Below are positions 18,521 to 59,656 of a stretch of 64,000 bases of DNA, piece after piece. Source of the stretch: a phage. Location: the NCBI GenBank assembly GCA_032986305.1, contig GCA_032986305.1_3672.1, one strand, 5' to 3'. Below the pieces are notes generated by a model. The model worked only from the letters and a program-made list of their open reading frames with translations, did no database searches and was not told the origin of the DNA. The position numbers were made by a program, and so were the translations under genes. How positions within the stretch are numbered: position 1 is the first letter of the stretch; the number at the start of each line of letters is the position of its first letter.

Positions 18521-19360
18521 TTATGCCAGTGCAGCCTCAAAATCTTTCATCATATTTTGGAAAGTTTTTGCCTTACTTAAGGTAACACCGTGCTCTTTGG
18601 CGAAGGTTTGGAGTGCATCTTTTGAACCACTTTTGTCATCTTCGTTGTTAAGAGCTGCAGCCTGCTGCAGTATGGCATCAATATCATTGTGAGAAGATCT
18701 TGATTCTTGTGCCTGTTCAGGCTCCTGCTCAGCACCTCCTGGTGCAGCCGGATCTGGAGATTCCTCACCACCAGGTTCAGTAGGACCTACAGGCGGCTCC
18801 GGCTCTGGTTCAGGCGGTGGAGCTATCGTAGAGACAAGTCCAAGATTTACAACCTGAGAACGTTTCTTAGGCCACTCAATGGTGAAAGTTTGGGTATCTT
18901 CTTCATAAACAACGTTGCATTGCTCATCGTTTATGGTCACTTTTTTGGGCATCCCTTCAGGGTCCCACAGATGACCTTCTGCTACGGAAACCTTGAAAGC
19001 AGCATCTACCTCTTTAAACACCGAAGGAGTGAGTGTAATATTGACATCACCGCTTTGAAGTGTTAAAGTGCTTTCATCAAGATTTTCTGTGAAGAACAGA
19101 AGAATAACACCCATACGGATGGTTGAAATGCCTGTATCAATTGGCAGGCCTGTGTGTTTTGCAATCTTCTCGAAGAAGTCTACAATCGTTCTGCATGGAT
19201 AGTGAACACTTCCAATAACGAACTCTGTTGGTGGAAGCAGGGCTGATAAACCAACATTGATTTCTGGATTGTATTGTGCTAAAAATTGATAAAAACTTAA
19301 CTGATTGTTGAAAACTCTTAATAGAGGATCATACTCGACTGGATATACGGCTCTCTTCAC
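18521..19360 (-). CDS. virion structural protein (279 aa) with PEPEPEPP linker
   Basis: ORF directly downstream of major capsid gene terminator. Confidence 0.3.
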   Translation of the reverse strand: MKRAVYPVEYDPLLRVFNNQLSFYQFLAQYNPEINVGLSALLPPTEFVIGSVHYPCRTIVDFFEKIAKHTGLPIDTGISTIRMGVILLFFTENLDESTLTLQSGDVNITLTPSVFKEVDAAFKVSVAEGHLWDPEGMPKKVTINDEQCNVVYEEDTQTFTIEWPKKRSQVVNLGLVSTIAPPPEPEPEPPVGPTEPGGEESPDPAAPGGAEQEPEQAQESRSSHNDIDAILQQAAALNNEDDKSGSKDALQTFAKEHGVTLSKAKTFQNMMKDFEAALA

Positions 19361-19441: not shown

Positions 19442-20464
19442 TTATTCACTTTTCAGAGTTACTTTAACAACCAGCTCTGGGCGGGTGTTAACTGCCAGCA
19501 TGGAAGTTTCAGATTCGATTTTCTGTTCTCTCAGGTAGGCAGAGTGTTTATACCACATATACAGCTCTTGAGCTGGGGTATTTGCATCTTCCAGAGTGTC
19601 AGCCGGAGCAAAGTGCAGCTGGAACATCTGATCGATACCCATAGGCATCAGACGAGCCTCACCGTCCGGAATGTTGCCAGAGATGTCTTCGATGAAGGTC
19701 ATACCCTTGTGTTCAAACACACGGTAAATGCTCTGTTCACCACCTGCACCCAGACGACGACGCAGCGGTTCCTGAGAAGAGCTGTAGTAGGTGTAAGCCA
19801 GCTCTACCAGCGGGTGATGAACCAGTGCTGAGAAGAATTTCGGAGAGCACAGCGCGATGATGTTATAAGCACCAGCGTTGTCACCAGCCTGCAGAGCAAT
19901 GTGCAGACGTGCATCTTCGATTACTTCCATCGGGTCCTGTGCTGCATTTTTAGGATCGATTTCGATAGATTTCTGGGAAACGCCCCACAGTTTGTAATAG
20001 TCATACTGACAGGTGGTGTCGCCAGGGGCATATGATTTACCCAGAACTGCAGCAAACAGCGCTTTTTCACGCAGAGTTTCGTGGGTCAGACGGATACGAC
20101 GAACCACACGGGTAACTACGTCCTGAACAGTTTTCGGTGCATCAGGGGTGAAGTAGCGACGGAAGTTCTGAACATCTGCAGCGGTGATGCCTTTATCCAG
20201 CGGGAAGAACGGGATGTTCAGGTTTTTGATCTGAGCACGTTCGCTACCAACGTAGTTACGTTCACCACCACGGCGACGTGCAGCAATATCACCAACCACT
20301 TCATCTGCACGTTCAATCTGTGCGATTGTTGAGGTGCCTAGATGAGTTTCAAACAGATCCATACCAGTGATCAGTCGGAATTGGCGCGGAACCAGTTCAA
20401 GAGTAGCACCTAAATCAACAATACCAAAATCATCTTTACGGGTGTTAGCCATTATTTTCTCCAA
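19442..20464 (-). CDS. major capsid protein (lambda gpE-like size, 340 aa)
   Basis: 340 aa ORF after a 124-aa decoration-like gene and scaffold; GGAGAA RBS; followed by strong terminator (high expression unit). Confidence 0.6.
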   Translation of the reverse strand: MEKIMANTRKDDFGIVDLGATLELVPRQFRLITGMDLFETHLGTSTIAQIERADEVVGDIAARRRGGERNYVGSERAQIKNLNIPFFPLDKGITAADVQNFRRYFTPDAPKTVQDVVTRVVRRIRLTHETLREKALFAAVLGKSYAPGDTTCQYDYYKLWGVSQKSIEIDPKNAAQDPMEVIEDARLHIALQAGDNAGAYNIIALCSPKFFSALVHHPLVELAYTYYSSSQEPLRRRLGAGGEQSIYRVFEHKGMTFIEDISGNIPDGEARLMPMGIDQMFQLHFAPADTLEDANTPAQELYMWYKHSAYLREQKIESETSMLAVNTRPELVVKVTLKSE

Positions 20465-20498: not shown

Positions 20499-20873
20499 TT
20501 ATTCCTGAACTTTGTTGCCTTTGGCTTCAAGCGCTGCCAGAACTGCTTCAGCTGCCGCTGTGCCGCCAGCAACTTTCAAATGAGCTTTAGCGAAGGTTAC
20601 ACCGCGAACAGCAACAACCAGCTTGTACTTCTCGCCAACTTTCAGCGGTTCTGCAAGATTTACACGACCAGCAGAGTCGGGCAGAAGCGCACGGTCAACC
20701 AGCACACCAAAGGTGTCTGAACCATCTTGATTAGCCAGAGTACCGGTTTTGGTAACTACTGCGCCAGCAACGTGATCAGCAGTGAGAGTGATTTCAATTT
20801 CTTTAAAGTTGAAACCTGCATCGCTAGAATCAACTTTGCCGAGCACGATATCAGAATATTGAGTGGTGATCAT
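20499..20873 (-). CDS. head decoration protein (lambda gpD-like, tentative)
   Basis: 124 aa ORF immediately upstream of capsid gene. Confidence 0.45.
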   Translation of the reverse strand: MITTQYSDIVLGKVDSSDAGFNFKEIEITLTADHVAGAVVTKTGTLANQDGSDTFGVLVDRALLPDSAGRVNLAEPLKVGEKYKLVVAVRGVTFAKAHLKVAGGTAAAEAVLAALEAKGNKVQE

Positions 20874-20894: not shown

Positions 20895-21875
20895 TTATTT
20901 ATTGGATTCTTTACGTGCGCGAGCCAGAGCTTTAGCGACGTTTTCAGCAATAATGTCTTCAGCAGATTTAGCAATGTCGTCCACCACGACATCACCATCT
21001 TTACCTTGCTCTGTGGTTGCGAACTCTTCTTTAGCTTTTTCAACTTTAGCTTCCAGTTCAGCAATACGAGCTTGAGCTTTTTCCAGCAATTCAACAACAG
21101 GGGCGTTAGCTTTATCCAGCATGAATTCGACCAGAGGTGCGTGGTCTTCTTCAGTGGTGAAGCTTAACGCCTGAGCTTTTTCCAGCATTTTAGCTTTTTC
21201 AACTTCTACCTGAGCCTTGATGATTTCTTCAGCTTTTTCATTGGTAGCTTTCAGTTCTTCGAACTGTTTCAGCAGGTCCAGGTACTCTTGAGACTTGGTT
21301 ACGTCTTCCACCGGATTCTCCTCGGTATTTGCGGATTTATCAACATTGTCCACAGCGTCTGTAACAACTTCTTCTGTGGTTTCCTGTGCCGCTTTAATAA
21401 GTTTCCCTTCTTCATCGAAGAGATCAGCGGTCATCTGCTCAAAAACTTGTTGGGTTTTCAACAGAGTGTATTGGTCAACAATACTTAAATCTTTACCTTC
21501 TTTAGCAGCTTTGTGAATGGTTACGTTATCACAACGTTCTTCTAACCACTGCACACAAGCCTCTGCATCAGCCTGTGCCCACTCCCAATCTGGGTGTTCT
21601 TTTGCCCAAGCTTCTTCCTCAATCTCGAACCCAAGCAGGTGAGCCAGTGCCTTAGCATCGTCATACCACATATCGAAAAAACGACGCAGGTATTCTTCAA
21701 AGCTAAGTTCAACAGTAACTTGGCGAAGAGCCTTAACGATATCCTCTGTTAACTGCTCGGGCTTAAGATCGCTCTTCATTAAAAGAGATACAGGCCTATT
21801 GTTAGCGCTATAGCCTTGCGCCTTGTGGCACAGGGCAATCCCTTTCTCTTTAATAGTGATTGTTTTTTCAGACAT
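20895..21875 (-). CDS. head scaffolding protein
   Basis: 326 aa, acidic, Glu/Lys/Ala-rich coiled-coil-like C-terminal half; between portal and capsid genes. Confidence 0.45.
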   Translation of the reverse strand: MSEKTITIKEKGIALCHKAQGYSANNRPVSLLMKSDLKPEQLTEDIVKALRQVTVELSFEEYLRRFFDMWYDDAKALAHLLGFEIEEEAWAKEHPDWEWAQADAEACVQWLEERCDNVTIHKAAKEGKDLSIVDQYTLLKTQQVFEQMTADLFDEEGKLIKAAQETTEEVVTDAVDNVDKSANTEENPVEDVTKSQEYLDLLKQFEELKATNEKAEEIIKAQVEVEKAKMLEKAQALSFTTEEDHAPLVEFMLDKANAPVVELLEKAQARIAELEAKVEKAKEEFATTEQGKDGDVVVDDIAKSAEDIIAENVAKALARARKESNK

Positions 21876-22290
21876 TACTCATTGCCCTCTTCTACAACAC
21901 TGATCCCGAAGTTTACGTTGGTGATCTCGCCAGTTTCTTCATCAACATTGCCAGTTGCCTGAATGCTTAGTCCACCAACAATGCCAGCCTTCTTAGCTTC
22001 CCATAATTCAGGATTGTTGTATTTAACTTTAGCAACCCAAGAGCCAGCCTTGATGACCTGCTCAGTACCAATTACCACAACATCAAACTCTTCTTGAATC
22101 CACGTCTTTTCAATAGTGAATGCATCTGTGGAGGTCAAGTGGAAAAGGTTTTCAGAAACTAGGCCTGCGGCGTATGCTGCGTCCCAATTATCTTTAGCCT
22201 TTTTGATGGTGTCTTTACTCATCCACTCACCGTGAGCGTCTTTAGTGTCCGGTTCGTAGATGATTTCGTAGGAAATCATTTCTTCCTGTG
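21875..22290 (-). CDS. head morphogenesis protein (start uncertain)
   Basis: ORF track 21875-22447 overlaps portal 3' end; internal ATGs with weak RBS. Confidence 0.3.
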
Positions 22291-22361
22291 GCATCTTATT
22301 CCCCATGTGGATTATTTTATCACGCCAAAGGAGGTTTTGCAACCCCCTGTGTTGATAATTT

Positions 22362-23918
22362 TTAATTTTCCATGTTGGATATGGAATTATCTCTGGTTGA
22401 TGACATCTTAGAAGTGCCGTTGCCAGTGGATCCTGCAGCCATTCCATCGCCAGCCCTACTGATGTCCTGGCCCAAGAGCTTCATTAGCTCTTCCTGATCC
22501 ATGTCCTCGTCAAATCTTTCATCAAACCCACCTACTTCAAGAATCTTATTAATTACTGCAGGAGTTTTTGGCAAGTAACCTACAGCACCGATCCTCTGGA
22601 CAAACTTGGAGAAGCTCTCCATGTCCACCTCTTCAATCAGGCCAGGTTTCAGTTTAGGCATATCATCATCTTCAAGGATGATACCATTCAATGCCAGAAG
22701 CTGTGGAATAAGATCTTTATTGAAGGCCTCAGTGATAATATCTATATCACGCTGAACAAAATGACCATGGATAGACTGTTTTGACTCAGACAGAGAGAAG
22801 GATCCGACGTTATCGTTACCGAGGTTAATAAAGCCAGCACCGAAACGGTCAAGAATCGCCTTCTTACGGGCATCAATCAAATCTTTAGTTGAATACTGCT
22901 TGCCCATACCGTCAACCCCCTTCAGGGTCATGGAGTAAAGCTCTTTACCAGACTTATCTCTATCAGACGGAAGTATAAAGAAACTTTGCTCCCCACTATG
23001 GGCGTTTGCTGCGTCAAGCATAAGATCTGCAACCATTCTCCCTTCCATTGAATTCGGGTCAATACTGGCCTTGTTCAAAATATTGGAAGGAATTTTCAGC
23101 TCAAGCACACCACCAAGGTCTTTGGAACAGCCAACAACCTCAAGGTTTTCAATCAAAACTTTCTCACGGAAAGATCTGTAGCAACCTATCATCGGTGACA
23201 CACCTGCAGGGTTAGATTCTGTTCCTGACAGAGTCATGAGCATAAGCTTTTTAGCAGGGATGAAAATTTCAGGCTCATTAAAGCCTTTTGAAGGCATTGC
23301 AGCAAGAGGTCCAGCCCAGCGTGCATTCTGAGTGTTTAGAAATGCATTAGGTGACTGATAAATACCTGTCAGTGTTCTACTATTCTTGTCAAAGACAAAC
23401 GGCTCTGATCTGGACAGACTGGCCTGAGGTCGGAATGCAATTTTATCAATAAGGAGCATCCCGGCATATTTACCTTCTTTCTCTCTGCGGTATACTTTCT
23501 CAAACAGTGAAAAACCATACTCGTTAAAGGTAGCTGCGCTTCTTGCAATATCCCGAAGGGTTTGTTGGTTTGCTAAATTACGCAAAGAATACTCTATAAG
23601 CTCGGCAGCTTTCTTAGAGTCTTCACTTTTAACATTATAAAGGATCTTAAAATCATTGAATGCTTTCGTGATGAAAACATATTTTGTATCTAAGGCAGTA
23701 GCAACTGTGGAATCACATTTCATAGTCTCCACTGTGGCAATCAGCTGAGGCCAACGCAATTCCTCAACCATCATAGATTGCGATTCTGCCATGATTTGGG
23801 AAAGTGCGCCAGAACCGATCTCACTCATACGAACATTATGAGTTGGTGCGCCTGCGTTCCCAGATTTATTCACAGTTTTGGCTGTGGCGTTGTGTTTCCT
23901 GCGGTTCTTTTTGGACAC
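22362..23918 (-). CDS. portal protein (518 aa; start GTG or downstream ATG)
   Basis: size and position between terminase and scaffold; annotated start is GTG. Confidence 0.6.
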   Translation of the reverse strand: MSKKNRRKHNATAKTVNKSGNAGAPTHNVRMSEIGSGALSQIMAESQSMMVEELRWPQLIATVETMKCDSTVATALDTKYVFITKAFNDFKILYNVKSEDSKKAAELIEYSLRNLANQQTLRDIARSAATFNEYGFSLFEKVYRREKEGKYAGMLLIDKIAFRPQASLSRSEPFVFDKNSRTLTGIYQSPNAFLNTQNARWAGPLAAMPSKGFNEPEIFIPAKKLMLMTLSGTESNPAGVSPMIGCYRSFREKVLIENLEVVGCSKDLGGVLELKIPSNILNKASIDPNSMEGRMVADLMLDAANAHSGEQSFFILPSDRDKSGKELYSMTLKGVDGMGKQYSTKDLIDARKKAILDRFGAGFINLGNDNVGSFSLSESKQSIHGHFVQRDIDIITEAFNKDLIPQLLALNGIILEDDDMPKLKPGLIEEVDMESFSKFVQRIGAVGYLPKTPAVINKILEVGGFDERFDEDMDQEELMKLLGQDISRAGDGMAAGSTGNGTSKMSSTRDNSISNMEN

Positions 23919-24020: not shown

Positions 24021-24827
24021 TTAGATAAAACGCTTGAACATAGAAGGTGATGAGATTGATGGAATCACACAAGGAAGTGCTACCTCCTCTTTCTCCAGGA
24101 AATTAATTGCAGAAGCTACACAGTCAGCCCAGTCGTCTTTTCTGTTAAATGTTGATCTTTCCCCGTTGAATTTTTCAAGTTCAGTCAGAAATGCTTCCAG
24201 AGTATCAGGATGGAAACTGGATTTTACAATCCTAACCATTCCTTGTTGGGCAAGATTGGCAAAAGGTGAGAACCTTGTCAGTTTAGATTTGTTGGAAGGC
24301 ATTGGGTCTTCTTCAACCCTAAACCCTTCGGCGAGCAAGGATCTGGAGGATGTTAAGAACTCACTCTTACCTGCCTGACCGGGGTCCACAGAGAATACGA
24401 TTATACAATCATCACCATCAAACTGCGCCTGTTTCCTGATGATCACATCTCGTTCACCAGCCTTTTTACAGAACTTGCCTTCCAGACCTGTGGAATACCT
24501 CCCGTCATCCACGTTTTCAGGACAATAATCCCCTGACAGGTAATAAAAGCCGTCGCTATCTTTACTTACCTTAACACTGGCGGTAAAGTCAGGAAATTTA
24601 TTACCGGAAGTTCTGTCGGTTCCTGCCTTATCCCATGCCCTGCAAGATACTGATCCAAGGGGTACTCTATCGGCATCACGAAGGAAAGATCTTTGAAAAT
24701 AGTTTGCACCCTCAGGCTTTGCAAACCAGTTGCCATGAAGAAGCTGGGCTTTTTCAAGCTCGGGCAGACCTTCAAGAAAAGCAAGGTATTCTGGGTTGTC
24801 TCTCAAGCAGACAGGATTATCGAATCC
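24021..24827 (-). CDS. terminase large subunit, exon 2 (nuclease domain); 5' boundary approximate
   Basis: 261-aa ORF; continues the reading frame of exon 1 after removal of the intervening intron. Confidence 0.65.
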   Translation of the reverse strand, partial: GFDNPVCLRDNPEYLAFLEGLPELEKAQLLHGNWFAKPEGANYFQRSFLRDADRVPLGSVSCRAWDKAGTDRTSGNKFPDFTASVKVSKDSDGFYYLSGDYCPENVDDGRYSTGLEGKFCKKAGERDVIIRKQAQFDGDDCIIVFSVDPGQAGKSEFLTSSRSLLAEGFRVEEDPMPSNKSKLTRFSPFANLAQQGMVRIVKSSFHPDTLEAFLTELEKFNGERSTFNRKDDWADCVASAINFLEKEEVALPCVIPSISSPSMFKRFI

Positions 24828-25804
24828 TTATATTCAAAGGTGGTCGCAACACCACCTTCCGCACCTTTACGTGCTGCTGCATGTTACCATGCAGAGTAGA
24901 CTATATCACCACCCATTTCAGGGTGCTTCGCTTTTCGAGCGCCATAAGCTTGCGCCCTACTCCCTCTCGGGATAGTCGTTGAACTACATTACCAATCGTA
25001 ATTGTTTGAAATATAGGTGTAAGTCTTACGGTCTTTTATTCCTTTAACAACACTAAAACTTACTCCCCACTTCTTAGCTATTTTATTTACACACAAGACC
25101 TTATCACTAAGATCCTCGCAGATACCTATTATCTTGTGCTCACTTATCCGATTAGAGGTTGGCACTTTTCTAAAGTTAAACTCTTTAGAAATATCTGGGT
25201 ATACTGAGCCATTCTTTATACCACTTACAAGTGGTTGATTGACACCAAACATTTCACAAATGTCTTTTACCCTTGCGCCTTGCTCTAACAGCCTACATAT
25301 TTCAAGAGCAGTGGCATCATCCAGGGACCTGTATTTATTGACATAGTCCTTTTTAAGTCCCATTTCATGAGCGTGATGTGTGTTTTCCTCAGGCGTTGTC
25401 CACTCAAGGTTCCATGCGGCGTTATTCAACTTATTACCATCTAGGTGGTTTACTTGAGTTTTCACGCTGGGATTGTCATTATCAACAAAAGTCATAGCAA
25501 TCACTCTGTGAACGAGCACTTGGAACTTTTTACCGTCCTCGCACAAAGTTACCATAGCATAGCCAGTCTTTTTCTGCACATTAGGATGGAGGAATTTATT
25601 AGAATACAGACTGTAAATTCTGCCATCGTATGTAGCACAATAATGATTGTAGCCTAAAAAGCCTAAATTTTTCATTTCAAACATCTCCCTACTACAGGTT
25701 CGGAAGGGTAATTATAGCTGCTGATTGTCCGTTTAGCAATCGGATTTCCCAGCAATTAACGAAGTTATTCGACGTGCATTTCTGCACGAAGCCACTATCA
25801 TTTA
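24828..25804 (-). mobile_element. group I intron in terminase large subunit gene, carrying an HNH homing endonuclease ORF (boundaries +/- ~20 nt)
   Basis: R-like GTTCAACGACTATC (reverse of 24962-24975) and S-like GATATAGTCT (reverse of 24897-24906) core elements; 3' core nearly identical to the nrdD intron at 53500-53545; interrupts a single terminase reading frame. Confidence 0.65.
24989..25675 (-). CDS. HNH homing endonuclease (intron-encoded)
   Basis: motif ..VHRVIAMTFVDNDNPSVKTQVNHLDGNKLNNAAWNLEW.. (HNH_3-type); ORF lies inside the intron; stop 12 nt before the R element. Confidence 0.7.
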   Translation of the reverse strand: MKNLGFLGYNHYCATYDGRIYSLYSNKFLHPNVQKKTGYAMVTLCEDGKKFQVLVHRVIAMTFVDNDNPSVKTQVNHLDGNKLNNAAWNLEWTTPEENTHHAHEMGLKKDYVNKYRSLDDATALEICRLLEQGARVKDICEMFGVNQPLVSGIKNGSVYPDISKEFNFRKVPTSNRISEHKIIGICEDLSDKVLCVNKIAKKWGVSFSVVKGIKDRKTYTYISNNYDW

Positions 25805-26547
25805 ATGGTTGCGCCTATAAACGAGAATGACAACGGTCTTGGCTTGATCTCCACACCCAGTCCGTTAACCGTGGTGTATTTCTCTATCAACTCTTCTTTA
25901 GAGTCTCCCCAAATAAATTCACCGTCGCGTCGGATAAAATATCTTTTCTTACCGCATTTCTCCGGATCTGGATACCCTTCATCGTCCAACCACCATCTAA
26001 CCAGTTTGGCAAGCATGTGTTCTGAATCGGGGTTACAGCTGATAACCATTCTTGATGGATACTTTGACTGAGATCGCAGACGAGACATCAGATAGTCTAT
26101 CTGCTCCCATTCGAACTGCGTTCCCTCATCGAAGCAAACCATGGTGTACTCAAGCCCTTGATGGTTAAGCTTATCTTGTACATACTCCATGTGGCAGTAT
26201 TTTACAACAGCTCCCTTTTTGCTCCTATCCCACTTGCCAGTGTTCGGATCAAACCGTGGAAAAATGAACTTATGATCCTTCTCTCTGAACTTTGGCTTAA
26301 TGTTTTCAGGCAGATCACTATAAATAGCTACTGCTTTAGGCCATAGTCCACCCTCACCTTCCAACTGTGGGGTTGTTCTTCGGAACATAACCACAGAGCT
26401 GTGGGGGTCATCAATAATTTTAAGCGGCATCAACTGCAAGAGGAACGACTTGCCAGACCCTGCGGCACCGCCGATTACCAAAATATCTGCATCATTTTCG
26501 AGGATCATCTTCTGCTTTTCAGAACACGGTCCGTAAATCTTAGACAT
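25805..26547 (-). CDS. terminase large subunit, exon 1 (ATPase domain); 3' boundary approximate
   Basis: Walker A GGAAGSGKS near the N-terminus; ORF ends at a stop lying just inside the intron. Confidence 0.7.
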
Positions 26548-54539: not shown

Positions 54540-54569
54540 TTGACAGAAGCCACAAGGATGTGGCATACT
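54540..54569 (+). promoter_or_regulatory. sigma70-like promoter
   Basis: TTGACA-N18-CATACT. Confidence 0.4.
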
Positions 54570-54602
54570 TGGCTAATCTATGAGAACCAAGAGGGATCAA
54601 AG

Positions 54603-55559
54603 ATGCCTAGAGGAAAACAACTTACAACTGAAGAATTTACAAAAAGAGCTAGAGAAGTACATGGCGATAAATATGACTATTCAAAAACCGTATATAAAAC
54701 TGCTAAAAGTAAGGTTGTAATTGTATGCCCTGTTCATGGTGAGTTTACGCAGATCGCTGGACATCATATCCTTGACGGTAGTGGGTGTCCTAAGTGTGGT
54801 AGAGTGCCAGTAGGCAATAAGCTTAGAAACGATTCTAGTGATATTATCAAAAAATTTGTAAAAATCCACGGTGACACCTATGATTATTCTAAGGTTGAAT
54901 ATGTTAACTATAAAACTCCTGTAAAAATTGTATGCCCTGAGCACGGAGTGTTCTTGCAATCCCCATCTAACCATTTGAAAGGCCAAGGGTGCCCTGAGTG
55001 TAGTAAACTCATTAGCGCAGCAAAAAGGAATAAAGGCCCTGAATTCATAGAAAGAGCCAAAGAAATCCATGGCGATAAATATGACTACTCTTTTGTAGAT
55101 TATATGACTTGCGAAGATAAGGTAGAGATAATCTGCAACACTTGTGGAAATCACTTCACCCAGACACCTTCTTGCCACCTGTCTGGTCGTGGATGCCCTA
55201 AATGTGCCAAAAACGGTTTCTTATCTCACAACTATGGGAAGCTTTACCTCATGGTTGATAACTTAGAAGCGCCAACACTTATGAAGATTGGTGTGAGCGT
55301 CAATGTAGAAGCGAGGAAGGGAAGGATATTAAGAGCATCCAAGAAGGCTGGTGCAGGTATTTATGATCTCCACATAGTAAAAACATGGGGCGGATCGACT
55401 GAAAACATGCTGAGTGTAGAAAAATCTGTGCATGAAGCCTTCAATAAGTATAAAATAAACTTCTCTAAAGTATTTAGTGGAAGCACTGAATTCTTTCACT
55501 ACAGACCTGAAGTGTTTAGCATAGTGGAAGCAGTATACAAAGAGATCTGTGGTAAATGA
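54603..55559 (+). CDS. free-standing homing-endonuclease-like protein: three zinc-finger repeats plus C-terminal T5orf172/GIY-YIG-related domain (tentative)
   Basis: three repeats of HGDKYDYS..C(P)..HG.F..H..G.GCP.C; C-terminal ..GKLYLMVDN..KIGVS..HIV..; between nrdD and nrdG. Confidence 0.45.
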   Translation: MPRGKQLTTEEFTKRAREVHGDKYDYSKTVYKTAKSKVVIVCPVHGEFTQIAGHHILDGSGCPKCGRVPVGNKLRNDSSDIIKKFVKIHGDTYDYSKVEYVNYKTPVKIVCPEHGVFLQSPSNHLKGQGCPECSKLISAAKRNKGPEFIERAKEIHGDKYDYSFVDYMTCEDKVEIICNTCGNHFTQTPSCHLSGRGCPKCAKNGFLSHNYGKLYLMVDNLEAPTLMKIGVSVNVEARKGRILRASKKAGAGIYDLHIVKTWGGSTENMLSVEKSVHEAFNKYKINFSKVFSGSTEFFHYRPEVFSIVEAVYKEICGK

Positions 55560-56201: not shown

Positions 56202-56231
56202 TTGACAAAGCTTTGTTAAGTTGGTTATAAT
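56202..56231 (+). promoter_or_regulatory. sigma70-like promoter
   Basis: TTGACA-N18-TATAAT. Confidence 0.5.
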
Positions 56232-56721: not shown

Positions 56722-56759
56722 AAGTGCTTGGTACATCTCAATCTGAAAGGAGTCCCAAC

Positions 56760-57548
56760 ATGGGTCGAGCTAAAGAAACAAAACGCATGCGTGATGAAGC
56801 TAGAGAGGCTCGCAAATCTGATCGCCTGCGTAAGGCTGCTGAGAAATTTGCTGACGAACGAGAGCACACCGCTCCAGCTCTCCGACCAATGAATAAGAAG
56901 CAGCAAAAGTATCTTGATTATCTAGGGTCACGTAAGATTATTATTGTAAACGGTGTGTTTGGATCCGGTAAGACATTCATGGCATCTGCATATGCAGGTG
57001 ATCTTCTGCGTAAGAACGAGATTGATAAGATCATTGTTGCACGTCCTTATGTACAGACCGGAAAATCAAGCGGATACAAACCGGGAACGTCAATGCAGAA
57101 GCTTTGGCCTTACCTTCGTAGTATGATGGACACTATTTGTCGTCGTGTTGGCAAAGGTGCTTTTGCCGCAATGCTAGGAGACGGTCAGAACAGCCGTATC
57201 GAGATTTGTGAAGTTGAAAGCATTCGTGGTCGTAGTTTCGATGAGCGATGCTTTGTCCTGATTGACGAGGCACAGCAAACTAACCCTGAAGAAATGTTGT
57301 CAATTATCACAAGGATCTCTGATCAGGCAACCCTTGTAATTATGGGCGATAATAGCCAACGTGACATCCCTGGTAAATCTGGCCTTGCATGGGTGACGGA
57401 TTTCTTTACTCGTCATCCAGATCCTGAGGTTGGAATGATCAGCTTTGATAGTCCAGACGATGTCGTTCGTTCCGGGTTGGGTCGTCAGATTGCACTCAAT
57501 CTTATTGAGGATCGTGCAAATCATATTTGGACCCCTGTTTCCGAGTAA
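56760..57548 (+). CDS. PhoH-like ATPase
   Basis: Walker A GVFGSGKT, Walker B-like LIDEAQ; start ATG with GAAAGGAG RBS. Confidence 0.6.
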   Translation: MGRAKETKRMRDEAREARKSDRLRKAAEKFADEREHTAPALRPMNKKQQKYLDYLGSRKIIIVNGVFGSGKTFMASAYAGDLLRKNEIDKIIVARPYVQTGKSSGYKPGTSMQKLWPYLRSMMDTICRRVGKGAFAAMLGDGQNSRIEICEVESIRGRSFDERCFVLIDEAQQTNPEEMLSIITRISDQATLVIMGDNSQRDIPGKSGLAWVTDFFTRHPDPEVGMISFDSPDDVVRSGLGRQIALNLIEDRANHIWTPVSE

Positions 57549-57592: not shown

Positions 57593-57621
57593 TTGACAAA
57601 TAGGCAAGCTTTAGATATTAT
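57593..57621 (+). promoter_or_regulatory. sigma70-like promoter
   Basis: TTGACA-N17-TATTAT. Confidence 0.5.
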
Positions 57622-57649: not shown

Positions 57650-57961
57650 ATGGCTACAATACAAGAGAAACTGAATAAAATATACTGCCTGTTTGTCTAT
57701 AACGGCGAGACAATTTTGGCAAATAAAGGATCCAAGAATGTGTGGATCAAGGACAGTGGTGGTAATATAATCAACTTAGCGTTGCTACGTGAGCGCCGAC
57801 ACAGATTCTTTATCGAGTCTCGGATTATTGAAAGCAGCACCTGCTACAGAACAGGCGATAAAGTAATTGTTGACAATGATACGTGGTATGTGGTAGACTG
57901 GCAATCATTGAGTTGTGATGCTTCTGACAATCGTAAGTATTCCATAGTGATTGCTAAATAA
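57650..57961 (+). CDS. hypothetical protein (103 aa)
   Basis: strong AAGGAGGAGG RBS before MATIQEK. Confidence 0.4.
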   Translation: MATIQEKLNKIYCLFVYNGETILANKGSKNVWIKDSGGNIINLALLRERRHRFFIESRIIESSTCYRTGDKVIVDNDTWYVVDWQSLSCDASDNRKYSIVIAK

Positions 57962-58021
57962 AGGTAAATGTGAATCAGGTTTAAATAAATAGCTTTCAAC
58001 TTCCAATATTAAGGATTTCTC

Positions 58022-59071
58022 ATGAATTTAACACCTCGCAGCACCATGGTACACGGCATGAAAGAAAAACAGAACGGTTTCGAACCTATGAGTAATAAAA
58101 TGTTTGGTATGCCGGGCGGTATCATGGAAACATACAGCTACCCAACACCTGTTGTTGACCACGTTCTTTATATCGACGATTTGGAAGACCTACAGGATCA
58201 TATGTCTCGTCTGCAGACGATCCGTATGGCTCAGCCGGAAGAAAGCATTCGGGTAATCATCAATAGCCCTGGGGGTTGCGTGCACATTGCAATGGCTTAT
58301 CTGCAGGCATTCCGCGAGTCTCAGGCAAGCGTTGTTGCACATGCTGAAGGGATGTGCTGCTCTGCTGGAACAATCCTATGGCTGGGTTGCAAAGAACGCA
58401 CCGTGGCTCCGGACACAGAGTTTATGTTCCACTACTATCAAGGCGGCACTTATGGTAACGGTGTGAACATGAATACTCAGGTCAGCTACTGGAAAAAACG
58501 TTTCGAACGCCTGATCGAAAAATACTACGGTGGGGTGCTTACAGAAGATGAGATCGCATCCATCACAGCTGGTGGCGAAGTGTGGTTGGACGGAGAAGAG
58601 CTGGCAGCACGCACTGGAGCTATTATTCTGGATGAAGGCAACATACAACGCATCCAGAACGGACAAAAACCGAAAAAGCTTCTGGCAAAAGGTGATGAAG
58701 AAGGCGTGTTAGGTGAAGCAGGTCTTCCGGAGATTCACCAGTGCACATCTTTAGATGAGTTAGTTCATGCTGTTGAATCTGCAAAAGCGGGTGGTTCGAA
58801 AGGTGATGTTCACACTGTGTTCCTGAATCTGCAGATGGAGAGTGGCGAGACCGTCAGAATTGCCCTGGGTGAGATTACTTCAGAAGATCTGCAGAGATTC
58901 TCTGTCGTTGAACTTCAGGATATTCTGTCTCAATTGAAGACTACTCTGAACGGCGGTGAAGAGGTTAAGGTGAAAGATAAGACTCGCAAGCGTCTGGTGG
59001 ACAATATTATTAAAACAGCAAAAGAGCTCAATGAAAAAATCCTGGGTGCAGGAATTGTCGAAGAAGCTTAA
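58022..59071 (+). CDS. ClpP-family serine protease-like protein with C-terminal extension
   Basis: ..IINSPGG.. motif, Ser in GMCCSAGT, His in MFHYYQ; 349 aa. Confidence 0.55.
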   Translation: MNLTPRSTMVHGMKEKQNGFEPMSNKMFGMPGGIMETYSYPTPVVDHVLYIDDLEDLQDHMSRLQTIRMAQPEESIRVIINSPGGCVHIAMAYLQAFRESQASVVAHAEGMCCSAGTILWLGCKERTVAPDTEFMFHYYQGGTYGNGVNMNTQVSYWKKRFERLIEKYYGGVLTEDEIASITAGGEVWLDGEELAARTGAIILDEGNIQRIQNGQKPKKLLAKGDEEGVLGEAGLPEIHQCTSLDELVHAVESAKAGGSKGDVHTVFLNLQMESGETVRIALGEITSEDLQRFSVVELQDILSQLKTTLNGGEEVKVKDKTRKRLVDNIIKTAKELNEKILGAGIVEEA

Positions 59072-59122: not shown

Positions 59123-59656
59123 ATGACTTGTGCTAGAAAACCTGATGAACAACGTAACGCCTACGATGAGTATGTGACACCGGAGTGGTGTGCAGAAGGG
59201 CTGTATGACCTTATTCCGTTCCCAGAAGACTGGACCTACTTAGAGCCTTGCAGGAATAGTGCCTCAGGTGTGTTCTACTCCCGTATGCCGTTAGGATCTG
59301 CATGGGGAGAAATCCAAGAAGGTGTTGACTATCTGAATACAGAATACAACCATGTTGACTGTATTATCACCAACCCACCATACAGCCTGGCTCGTGAGTT
59401 TGTAGACAAGGCGTTGAAAGATGCTGACGTAGTTATTATGCTTTTGCGTCTTAATTTTCTGGAAAGCAAAACCAGATTCGAATGGTGGCTTGATAATGCA
59501 CCTACCACTGTGATCACAATATCTAAGCGCCCGTCATTCCAATCCAATGGTAGAACGGATGGGCAGGCATATGCATATTTTGTATGGGACAAGAAAAACC
59601 GTCTAGACTTGCCGCCATTTATGTGGTTGGCACCACCAGAGGCAGACTTGAAATGA
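59123..59656 (+). CDS. small DNA methyltransferase (N6-adenine type, motif IV NPPY)
   Basis: ..CIITNPPYSLA..; 177 aa. Confidence 0.5.
   Translation: MTCARKPDEQRNAYDEYVTPEWCAEGLYDLIPFPEDWTYLEPCRNSASGVFYSRMPLGSAWGEIQEGVDYLNTEYNHVDCIITNPPYSLAREFVDKALKDADVVIMLLRLNFLESKTRFEWWLDNAPTTVITISKRPSFQSNGRTDGQAYAYFVWDKKNRLDLPPFMWLAPPEADLK

Follow-up and report, generated by a model that had tools for sequence, protein, structure and literature searches.

The window analyzed here is a 64,000-nucleotide stretch of phage DNA (contig GCA_032986305.1_3672.1), and its plus strand carries a gene for a ClpP-like protease that runs from 58022 to 59071, exactly where the original prediction had placed it, and encodes 349 amino acids plus a stop. 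The source phage is an rV5-like Escherichia coli myophage of the genus Vequintavirus, with genomes of ~137 kb, and the 3 kb around the gene shares 97 to 98.6% identity with over 100 phage records, JES2013, FFH2, and ECML-10 among them. The open reading frame (ORF) is a real gene that is already known as an annotated one: the JES2013 ORF114 protein is 100% identical to the window protein, over 100 Vequintavirus genomes already carry a ClpP-like annotation for proteins that are 99 to 100% identical, PHROG 5410 ("ATP-dependent protease") covers it from end to end (E=5e-155), and its rV5 counterpart, gp122, was labeled "ClpP (ATP-dependent) protease subunit" in Table S3 of the 2013 rV5 paper (PMC3606486). 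As a gene it is therefore ordinary, with an identical protein annotated since 2013 and a PHROG family of its own.

According to GC skew and the ORF map, the first ~32 kb carry structural genes on the minus strand; beyond this point the plus strand carries genes of replication and nucleotide metabolism, and there the ClpP-like gene has NrdG, PhoH, and a methyltransferase as neighbors. The major capsid gene is ~37.5 kb away on the opposite strand, in agreement with the earlier description of the protease gene as far from the head genes. The features of the locus and of the head module are collected in Table 1.

Fold, active site, and C-terminal extension

All three sequence motifs on which the ClpP assignment was originally based are present, IINSPGG at residues 79 to 85, CCSAGT at 112 to 117, and MFHYY at 135 to 139, the latter two providing Ser114 and His137, and the family assignment itself is confirmed by profile and by fold. 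The Pfam family CLP_protease (PF00574) scores 47.7 bits, above its curated cutoff of 20.2 (E=2e-12), covering only residues 59 to 168. An AlphaFold2 (AF2) model of the monomer, for which 13 members of the family were used, shows a ClpP core over residues 46 to 215 with a predicted local distance difference test score (pLDDT) of ~90, and it keeps the handle helix; in the alignment the handle region is Gly-rich and has the same length as in cellular ClpP. In a Foldseek comparison with the PDB the best 50 matches are all ClpP, with template-modeling (TM) scores on the target of 0.64 to 0.73 (~0.69) over ~170 aligned residues at ~20% identity, and the family profile matches 105 PDB ClpP sequences. 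When a profile of ten phage lineages is used as the hhalign query, E. coli ClpP is matched with a probability of 97% (E=1.8e-11) and lambda gpC with 29% (E=6e-4), which puts the family on the S14 ClpP side and not with the S49 protease of lambda. A lambda C-like S49 head protease with a nested scaffold was considered and rejected, given that 29% probability and the position of the gene outside the head module.

Across 68 distinct relatives, over which all conservation counts were taken, Ser114, His137, and both glycines of the SPGG motif are invariant (68/68), and Ser114 is also matched in E. coli ClpP. The third position of the triad is Asp in 54 relatives, Gln in 12, and Glu in two, the residue in the window phage being Glu186. 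The invariance of Ser, His, and the glycine pair together with the Asp/Gln/Glu pattern at the third position points to a working serine peptidase, and a pseudo-protease was rejected on the ground that Ser and His do not vary in any of the relatives.

The C-terminal extension that had been estimated at ~130 residues comprises 134 (216 to 349). In the AF2 model it consists of a disordered linker (222 to 241) and a domain of moderate confidence (~243 to 343) made of a helix, a β-hairpin, and further helices. Within the Vequintavirinae-level family the extension is conserved, with F293, E297, and R322 invariant, and most of the 68 relatives are 200 to 220 residues long and have no such extension. 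A profile search with the extension over 1.84 billion representative proteins recovered the same family alone, and it has no recognizable fold; it is an appendage specific to the lineage, perhaps with a role in the recognition of substrates or partners.

The ClpX/ClpA docking surface

The pocket of E. coli ClpP that receives the IGF loop of the ATPase, and acyldepsipeptide (ADEP) compounds, is one that we take to be formed by Y60, Y62, F82, I90, M92, F112, L114, L48, and F49 (mature numbering), where the residue types at these numbers are what was confirmed in the E. coli ClpP sequence. That sequence was confirmed as a 100% match to PDB entry 3MT6. The alignment finds no hydrophobic IGF/IGL-loop pocket of the ClpXP/ClpAP type in the window protein: Y60, Y62, F82, I90, M92, F112, and L114 correspond to R77, I79, E99, H107, E109, T127, and A129, and L48 and F49 fall within a deletion of five residues in helix B. 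Position 77 is Lys or Arg in 66/68 relatives, position 99 is Glu or Asp in 67/68, and position 109 is Glu in 68/68. This charged trio is kept throughout the clade, including the loci taken from the IMG/VR collection, so the residues of the ClpX pocket were not replaced at random, and its conservation suggests that a different interface has been retained at this site.

The N terminus also departs from the cellular enzyme, in that the axial loops of ClpP have no alignable counterpart and residues 1 to 45 have a pLDDT below 50, though FGxPG and YxYP motifs are conserved in this segment within the Vequintavirinae-level family. No ClpX-like or ClpA-like gene turned up in the annotated JES2013 regions that were viewed. 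Because the docking pocket is charged clade-wide, the label "ATP-dependent" is doubtful, and judging from the alignments the protease probably does not depend on ATP in the way that ClpXP does. Its name in the databases, "ATP-dependent Clp protease proteolytic subunit," is accordingly likely to mislead, the site at which the ATPase would dock having been lost across the clade.

The head module and the gene neighborhood

The original prediction held that no protease is recognizable in the head module, and in this it was mistaken. Between the portal gene, which it follows directly, and a scaffold-like ORF lies an XkdF-type (Peptidase_S78_2) ORF (21875-22447, minus strand), which scores 64.6 bits with Pfam PF14550, where the cutoff is 24 (E=1.1e-17, residues 52 to 167 on profile positions 8 to 123 of 126), and is matched as well by PHROG 3017, "head maturation protease." The PHROG that fits it best, 1530, is labeled "DNA methyltransferase," and this label has apparently been inherited by RefSeq, where "DNA methyltransferase" is the product name in several genera (JES2013, PAK_P4, ESCO5, Psxphi15), so that the head-protease candidate of the rV5-like phages is misnamed in these records. 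Other annotations call it "prohead protease" (BASEL HeinrichReichert), "XkdF-like putative serine protease" (EC152), or "capsid protease" (ICP1). The ICP1 homologue, gp125, is the predicted procapsid protease within the gp122-126 capsid operon (PMC7567579). No match was found when the XkdF-type ORF was searched against PDB sequences. As listed, this ORF shares 86 nt with the end of the portal gene, but homologues align from about residue 51, so that translation probably begins at Met48 or Met52 (22306 or 22294), immediately past the portal stop. On sequence grounds it is likely to be the real prohead protease.

In the mass spectrometry of rV5 virions the capsid peptide KDEFGIVDLGATLDLVPR covers residues ~6 to 23, so the capsid N terminus is kept, and the scaffold-like gp62 is nearly absent, with two spectra. 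With the capsid N terminus intact and gp62 almost gone, the job to be expected of the head protease is removal of the scaffold and not trimming of the capsid. The ICP1 homologue of the scaffold-like protein is an experimentally shown scaffold, and particles prepared with no protease inhibitor present contain it in cleaved form (PMC10945586).

The strongest evidence on the role of the ClpP-like gene comes from its genomic context. In ~90 loci, made up of seven phage lineages and 80 IMG/VR metagenomic loci, it never lies beside head genes, and it co-occurs with a head-module XkdF-type protease in four lineages (rV5-like phages, ICP1, Otagovirus, and Pakpunavirus PAK_P4). The order in the window is NrdG, a small ORF, PhoH, a second small ORF, the ClpP-like gene, and the methyltransferase; in ICP1 it is nrdA and nrdB, then after other genes PhoH (gp208), gp209, gp210, and the ClpP-like gp211, with a ligase further on; and in the Rheinheimera Barbavirus it is PhoH, Clp protease, and DNA methylase. 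The reading frames of PhoH and the protease overlap in Flaumdravirus KIL1 and in Otagovirus UNO-G1W1. In Vequintavirus, PhoH and the protease gene always have the small ORF of PHROG 5456 between them, and in ICP1 two small ORFs take that place. In Pakpunavirus PAK_P4 the ClpP-like gene is in a non-head region near dCMP deaminase and ligase, and in the T5-like phage Slocum the homologue of T5.042 adjoins a dNMP kinase among non-head genes. T5 has, besides T5.042, a separate characterized head protease, pb11.

Scanning the 80 IMG/VR viral loci that encode relatives with a PhoH profile found PhoH in 39, in every case upstream and on the same strand, at 117 to 2057 nt from the ClpP-like gene, and after clustering at 90% identity PhoH is upstream in 20 of the 38 clusters with enough upstream sequence. 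The family is one of widespread early-region phage proteases, usually encoded just downstream of PhoH. A scan against PHROGs of 127 neighbors from clusters without PhoH gave endolysin, ribonucleotide reductase subunits, RuvC-like resolvase, ferredoxin, thymidylate synthase, SbcCD, and Sir2 as the commonest families, and no portal, terminase, capsid, or scaffold family was among the top 25.

In ICP1 the block of nucleotide-metabolism genes that holds the ClpP-like gene peaks before the late genes (PMC7567579), and in the window three matches to sigma-70 promoters precede the gene or its block (Table 1). In rV5, gp122 is not among the virion proteins flagged as detected by mass spectrometry (PMC3606486), which agrees with a cytoplasmic role, though it is not proof of one. 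In the CRISPRi-ART study the rV5-like phage EdH4 was targeted at capsid and rII genes only, so that the study yields no essentiality data for the ClpP-like gene. The protease goes unmentioned in the PAK_P3/PAK_P4 transcriptome paper, and a search for structural proteomics of Pakpunavirus found nothing relevant.

Table 1. Coordinates of the ClpP-like gene, its neighborhood, and the head module in the window
Feature	Position	Strand	Basis or remark
ClpP-like protease gene	58022-59071	+	349 residues plus stop, ATG start; rV5 gp122, JES2013 ORF114
Shine-Dalgarno AAGGA	58011-58015	+	6 nt before the ATG of the ClpP-like gene; read directly
N-terminal 45 residues, predicted disordered	58022-58156	+	AF2 pLDDT; family alignment
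ClpP-fold catalytic core, residues 46-215	58157-58666	+	AF2, Foldseek, hhalign
Catalytic Ser114 codon	58361-58363	+	Aligns with E. coli ClpP S97
Catalytic His137 codon	58430-58432	+	Aligns with ClpP H122
Glu186 codon, position of ClpP triad Asp171	58577-58579	+	Strand E-V-W versus D-R-F; register from model secondary structure
C-terminal extension, residues 216-349	58667-59068	+	Linker plus small domain; only in the Vequintavirinae-level lineage
Sigma-70 consensus TTGACA-18-TATAAT	56202-56231	+	12/12; upstream of the small ORF/PhoH/ClpP-like block; pattern match only
PhoH-like ATPase gene	56724-57548	+	Pfam PhoH, E=7e-47; upstream neighbor of the ClpP-like gene
Sigma-70-like promoter match	57593-57621	+	11/12; upstream of the PHROG 5456 small ORF; pattern match only
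Small ORF, PHROG 5456	57650-57961	+	Between PhoH and the ClpP-like gene; start at Met42 of the listed ORF
Sigma-70-like promoter match TTGACA-18-TAGACT with TG	57870-57899	+	10/12; just upstream of the ClpP-like gene; pattern match only
DNA methyltransferase-like gene	59123-59656	+	PHROG 799; downstream of the ClpP-like gene
Large terminase, two ORFs	25798-26547 and 24021-24806	-	Head module map
Portal protein	22362-23918	-	PHROG 113, Pfam Portal_Mu
XkdF-type (Peptidase_S78_2) ORF	21875-22447	-	190 residues; likely prohead protease
Acidic scaffold-like protein (rV5 gp62)	20895-21875	-	326 residues; position and composition; expected head-protease substrate
Head decoration protein	20499-20873	-	Head module map
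Major capsid protein, lambda E type	19442-20464	-	Pfam Phage_cap_E

Some further features of the window and its relatives were recorded. The two terminase ORFs are separated by an HNH homing-endonuclease ORF (24989-25684, minus strand), where JES2013 has a different endonuclease, and the rV5 paper describes the large terminase gene as spliced. Downstream of the capsid gene, a 279-residue ORF (18521-19360, minus strand) ends in 45 residues that align with the N-terminal portion of PHROG 1051, "minor head protein inhibitor of protease" (E=2e-7), and from this similarity the ORF could be a head-targeting or protease-related element. Just upstream of nrdG, a 339-residue ORF (54540-55559, plus strand) has repeated zinc-ribbon motifs (DUF723), a T5orf172 domain, and a match to the PHROG 681 endonuclease; it looks like a mobile endonuclease insertion, since JES2013 shows merely a 117-nt ORF between nrdD and nrdG. 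Finally, 19 GenBank "Campylobacter phage" records (MG065644-MG065690) with C. jejuni as the host are 97 to 98.6% identical to the E. coli rV5-like sequence of the window, and at this identity the host assignment looks doubtful, carry-over of a coliphage being one possible source.

Proposed role, alternatives, and related systems

Our favored reading is that the gene encodes a self-contained and active ClpP-fold serine peptidase with Ser114, His137, and Glu186 as its catalytic residues, that it would be made together with early or middle genes of nucleotide metabolism and replication, and that the enzyme would work in the cytoplasm of the infected cell and not inside the prohead. Canonical docking to ClpX or ClpA would not be used, and because a charged patch takes the place of the IGF-loop pocket and the N-terminal gating loops have no counterpart, it would most likely be an ungated or differently gated oligomeric peptidase that acts on unfolded proteins or peptides, candidate substrates being proteins of the host while it is taken over, or early proteins of the phage. 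It may be functionally associated with the PhoH-like ATPase encoded upstream, and maturation of the capsid would fall to the XkdF-type protease, whose gene lies between those for portal and scaffold. We regard this combination, of an early or middle, ClpX-independent cytoplasmic ClpP-fold peptidase with some link to the PhoH module and of the XkdF-type ORF as the head-maturation protease, as moderately probable. A protease with another role than head maturation was one of two alternatives in the original prediction, and it is the one we favor, given a head protease within the head module and a conserved non-head context for the ClpP-like gene.

Several observations weigh against this reading. 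After its own family, the best PHROG matches of the protein are head maturation proteases (1684, 94, 2976, and 133, with E values of 1e-22 to 1e-14), and a shared origin of the ClpP-like family with head proteases is possible on this similarity. Neither absence from mature virions nor independence of an ATPase discriminates, as prohead proteases show both. The register of the third triad residue depends on a predicted structure, the XkdF family is itself listed as a "putative" protease in Pfam, and the statement on timing in ICP1 covers a range of genes and not gp211 specifically. PhoH is not found within ~6 kb in 18 of the 38 informative clusters, and where it is found, its synteny among distant large phages could be inherited gene order and not functional coupling. 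A search of the literature for the function of rV5 gp122, T5.042, and phage-encoded ClpP-like proteins found nothing.

The other alternative in the original prediction was a prohead protease encoded away from the head genes; whether as the prohead protease or as a second one, it would be brought to the procapsid by its C-terminal extension and would digest the scaffold. Enzymes of the ClpP/S49 fold are a known class of head-maturation protease, the four PHROG families named above match residues ~70 to 256, the ClpX docking pocket is gone as it is in head proteases, and the protein is not in mature virions, as would be expected of a head protease. The lineage-conserved C-terminal domain could moreover be a targeting element, and something removes the scaffold, as gp62 is nearly gone from rV5 virions. 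The case for a remote enzyme, however, depended on a head module without a protease, and it falls with that premise: the XkdF-type protease fills the canonical slot between portal and scaffold, and both genes are present together in four lineages. In addition, none of the ~90 loci has the ClpP-like gene next to head genes, most relatives have no extension that could serve for targeting, the T5.042-like homologue of Slocum sits among non-head genes, T5 also has pb11 as a separate head protease, the nucleotide-metabolism block peaks earlier in ICP1, and by hhalign the family is nearer to cellular ClpP than to lambda gpC. We consider a role as prohead protease unlikely, and it keeps the small probability that we give it because the next-nearest PHROG families are head proteases. 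A genuine ATP-dependent Clp proteolytic subunit, whose ClpP-type rings would dock host ClpX or ClpA and so redirect host proteolysis, is favored by the membership in Pfam CLP_protease, the ClpP fold with its handle helix, and the retained catalytic residues, but at the pocket positions that such docking requires the window protein has R, I, E, H, E, T, and A or a deletion, with charge at the site clade-wide, and the predicted disordered N terminus offers no counterpart for the axial-loop sequence, all of which makes this reading very unlikely.

A more intimate relation to PhoH than our reading assumes would make the two proteins a two-component machine, in which PhoH would deliver or remodel substrates for the protease or both would act on a common ribonucleoprotein target. 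The constancy with which PhoH is upstream on the same strand wherever it was detected (39/39 loci), across ClpP-like proteins that are only ~25 to 35% identical, argues for such a relation, as do the overlapping reading frames in KIL1 and UNO-G1W1, and the conserved charged patch at the ClpX pocket could be another docking surface. However, PhoH is a helicase-like P-loop NTPase and not an AAA+ unfoldase, one to several unrelated ORFs usually stand between the two genes (the gap being 474 nt in the window and up to 2 kb elsewhere), no PhoH was found in the examined flanks of half the clusters, in the Pakpunavirus locus, or in the T5-like locus, and the synteny may be merely inherited. We think such a machine improbable, and we are equally hesitant about the broader proposal that PhoH and the ClpP-like peptidase form a conserved two-gene unit of large virulent phages, which would carry out proteolysis or ribonucleoprotein remodeling without ClpX and use the charged patch as its docking surface. 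As for a protein that co-assembles with or poisons host ClpP rings, and is thus a regulator and not itself a protease, the ClpP fold and the handle region are retained and heteromeric ClpP rings exist in bacteria (ClpP1P2 structures are among the matches), but invariance of Ser and His in all 68 relatives indicates selection on catalysis, and with ~20% identity to E. coli ClpP and a deletion in helix B this reading is extremely unlikely.

A concrete question follows from the defense literature: Vequintavirinae (BASEL Bas48-59) are restricted by a cyclic oligonucleotide-based antiphage signaling system (CBASS) whose cyclase, as recent work showed, is switched on by cleavage by a phage protease (PMC12991175). 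The rV5-like phages have two candidate proteases, which would be expressed at different times, and either may be the one that trips this sensor. The order of PhoH followed by the ClpP-like gene across very divergent phages is a modest but testable lead on both families, and were the two-gene unit true, it would open a first mechanistic way into PhoH, a gene that is very widespread among phages.

The window protein is not different from rV5 gp122, JES2013 ORF114, or PHROG 5410, and the window adds one more isolate. With cellular ClpP (MEROPS S14; 1TYF, 3MT6, and 6WR2) it has in common the fold over ~170 residues, the SPGG oxyanion motif, the catalytic Ser and His, and the handle, and it differs in its ~20% identity, in Glu as the third triad residue, in a helix B that is five residues shorter, in the charged residues at the ClpX/ClpA/ADEP pocket, in the lack of N-terminal axial loops, and in the 134-residue C-terminal extension. 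To lambda gpC and to PHROGs 1684, 94, 2976, and 133 there is a remote likeness over the region from SPGG to the catalytic Ser, together with ATPase independence; lambda gpC is, however, encoded between the portal and the decoration and capsid genes with a nested scaffold, whereas the ClpP-like gene of the window is 37 kb from the head genes. Indeed, the order portal, XkdF-like ORF, scaffold, decoration protein, and E-type capsid protein in the window parallels lambda B, C with nested Nu3, D, and E, so that the slot of lambda protease C is taken by the XkdF-like ORF. Further parallels are the other early-region ClpP-like proteins, ICP1 gp211, the T5.042-like proteins, PAK_P4 gp168, KIL1 gp031, and Barbavirus gp072 (PHROG 1827), which have the catalytic core in common with the window protein at 19 to 27% identity and which, like it, have a non-head context, often with PhoH immediately upstream. 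They are mostly ~200 to 230 residues long, without the C-terminal domain of the window protein, and mostly have Asp at the third triad position, and the extension that ICP1 gp211 carries differs from that of the window protein.

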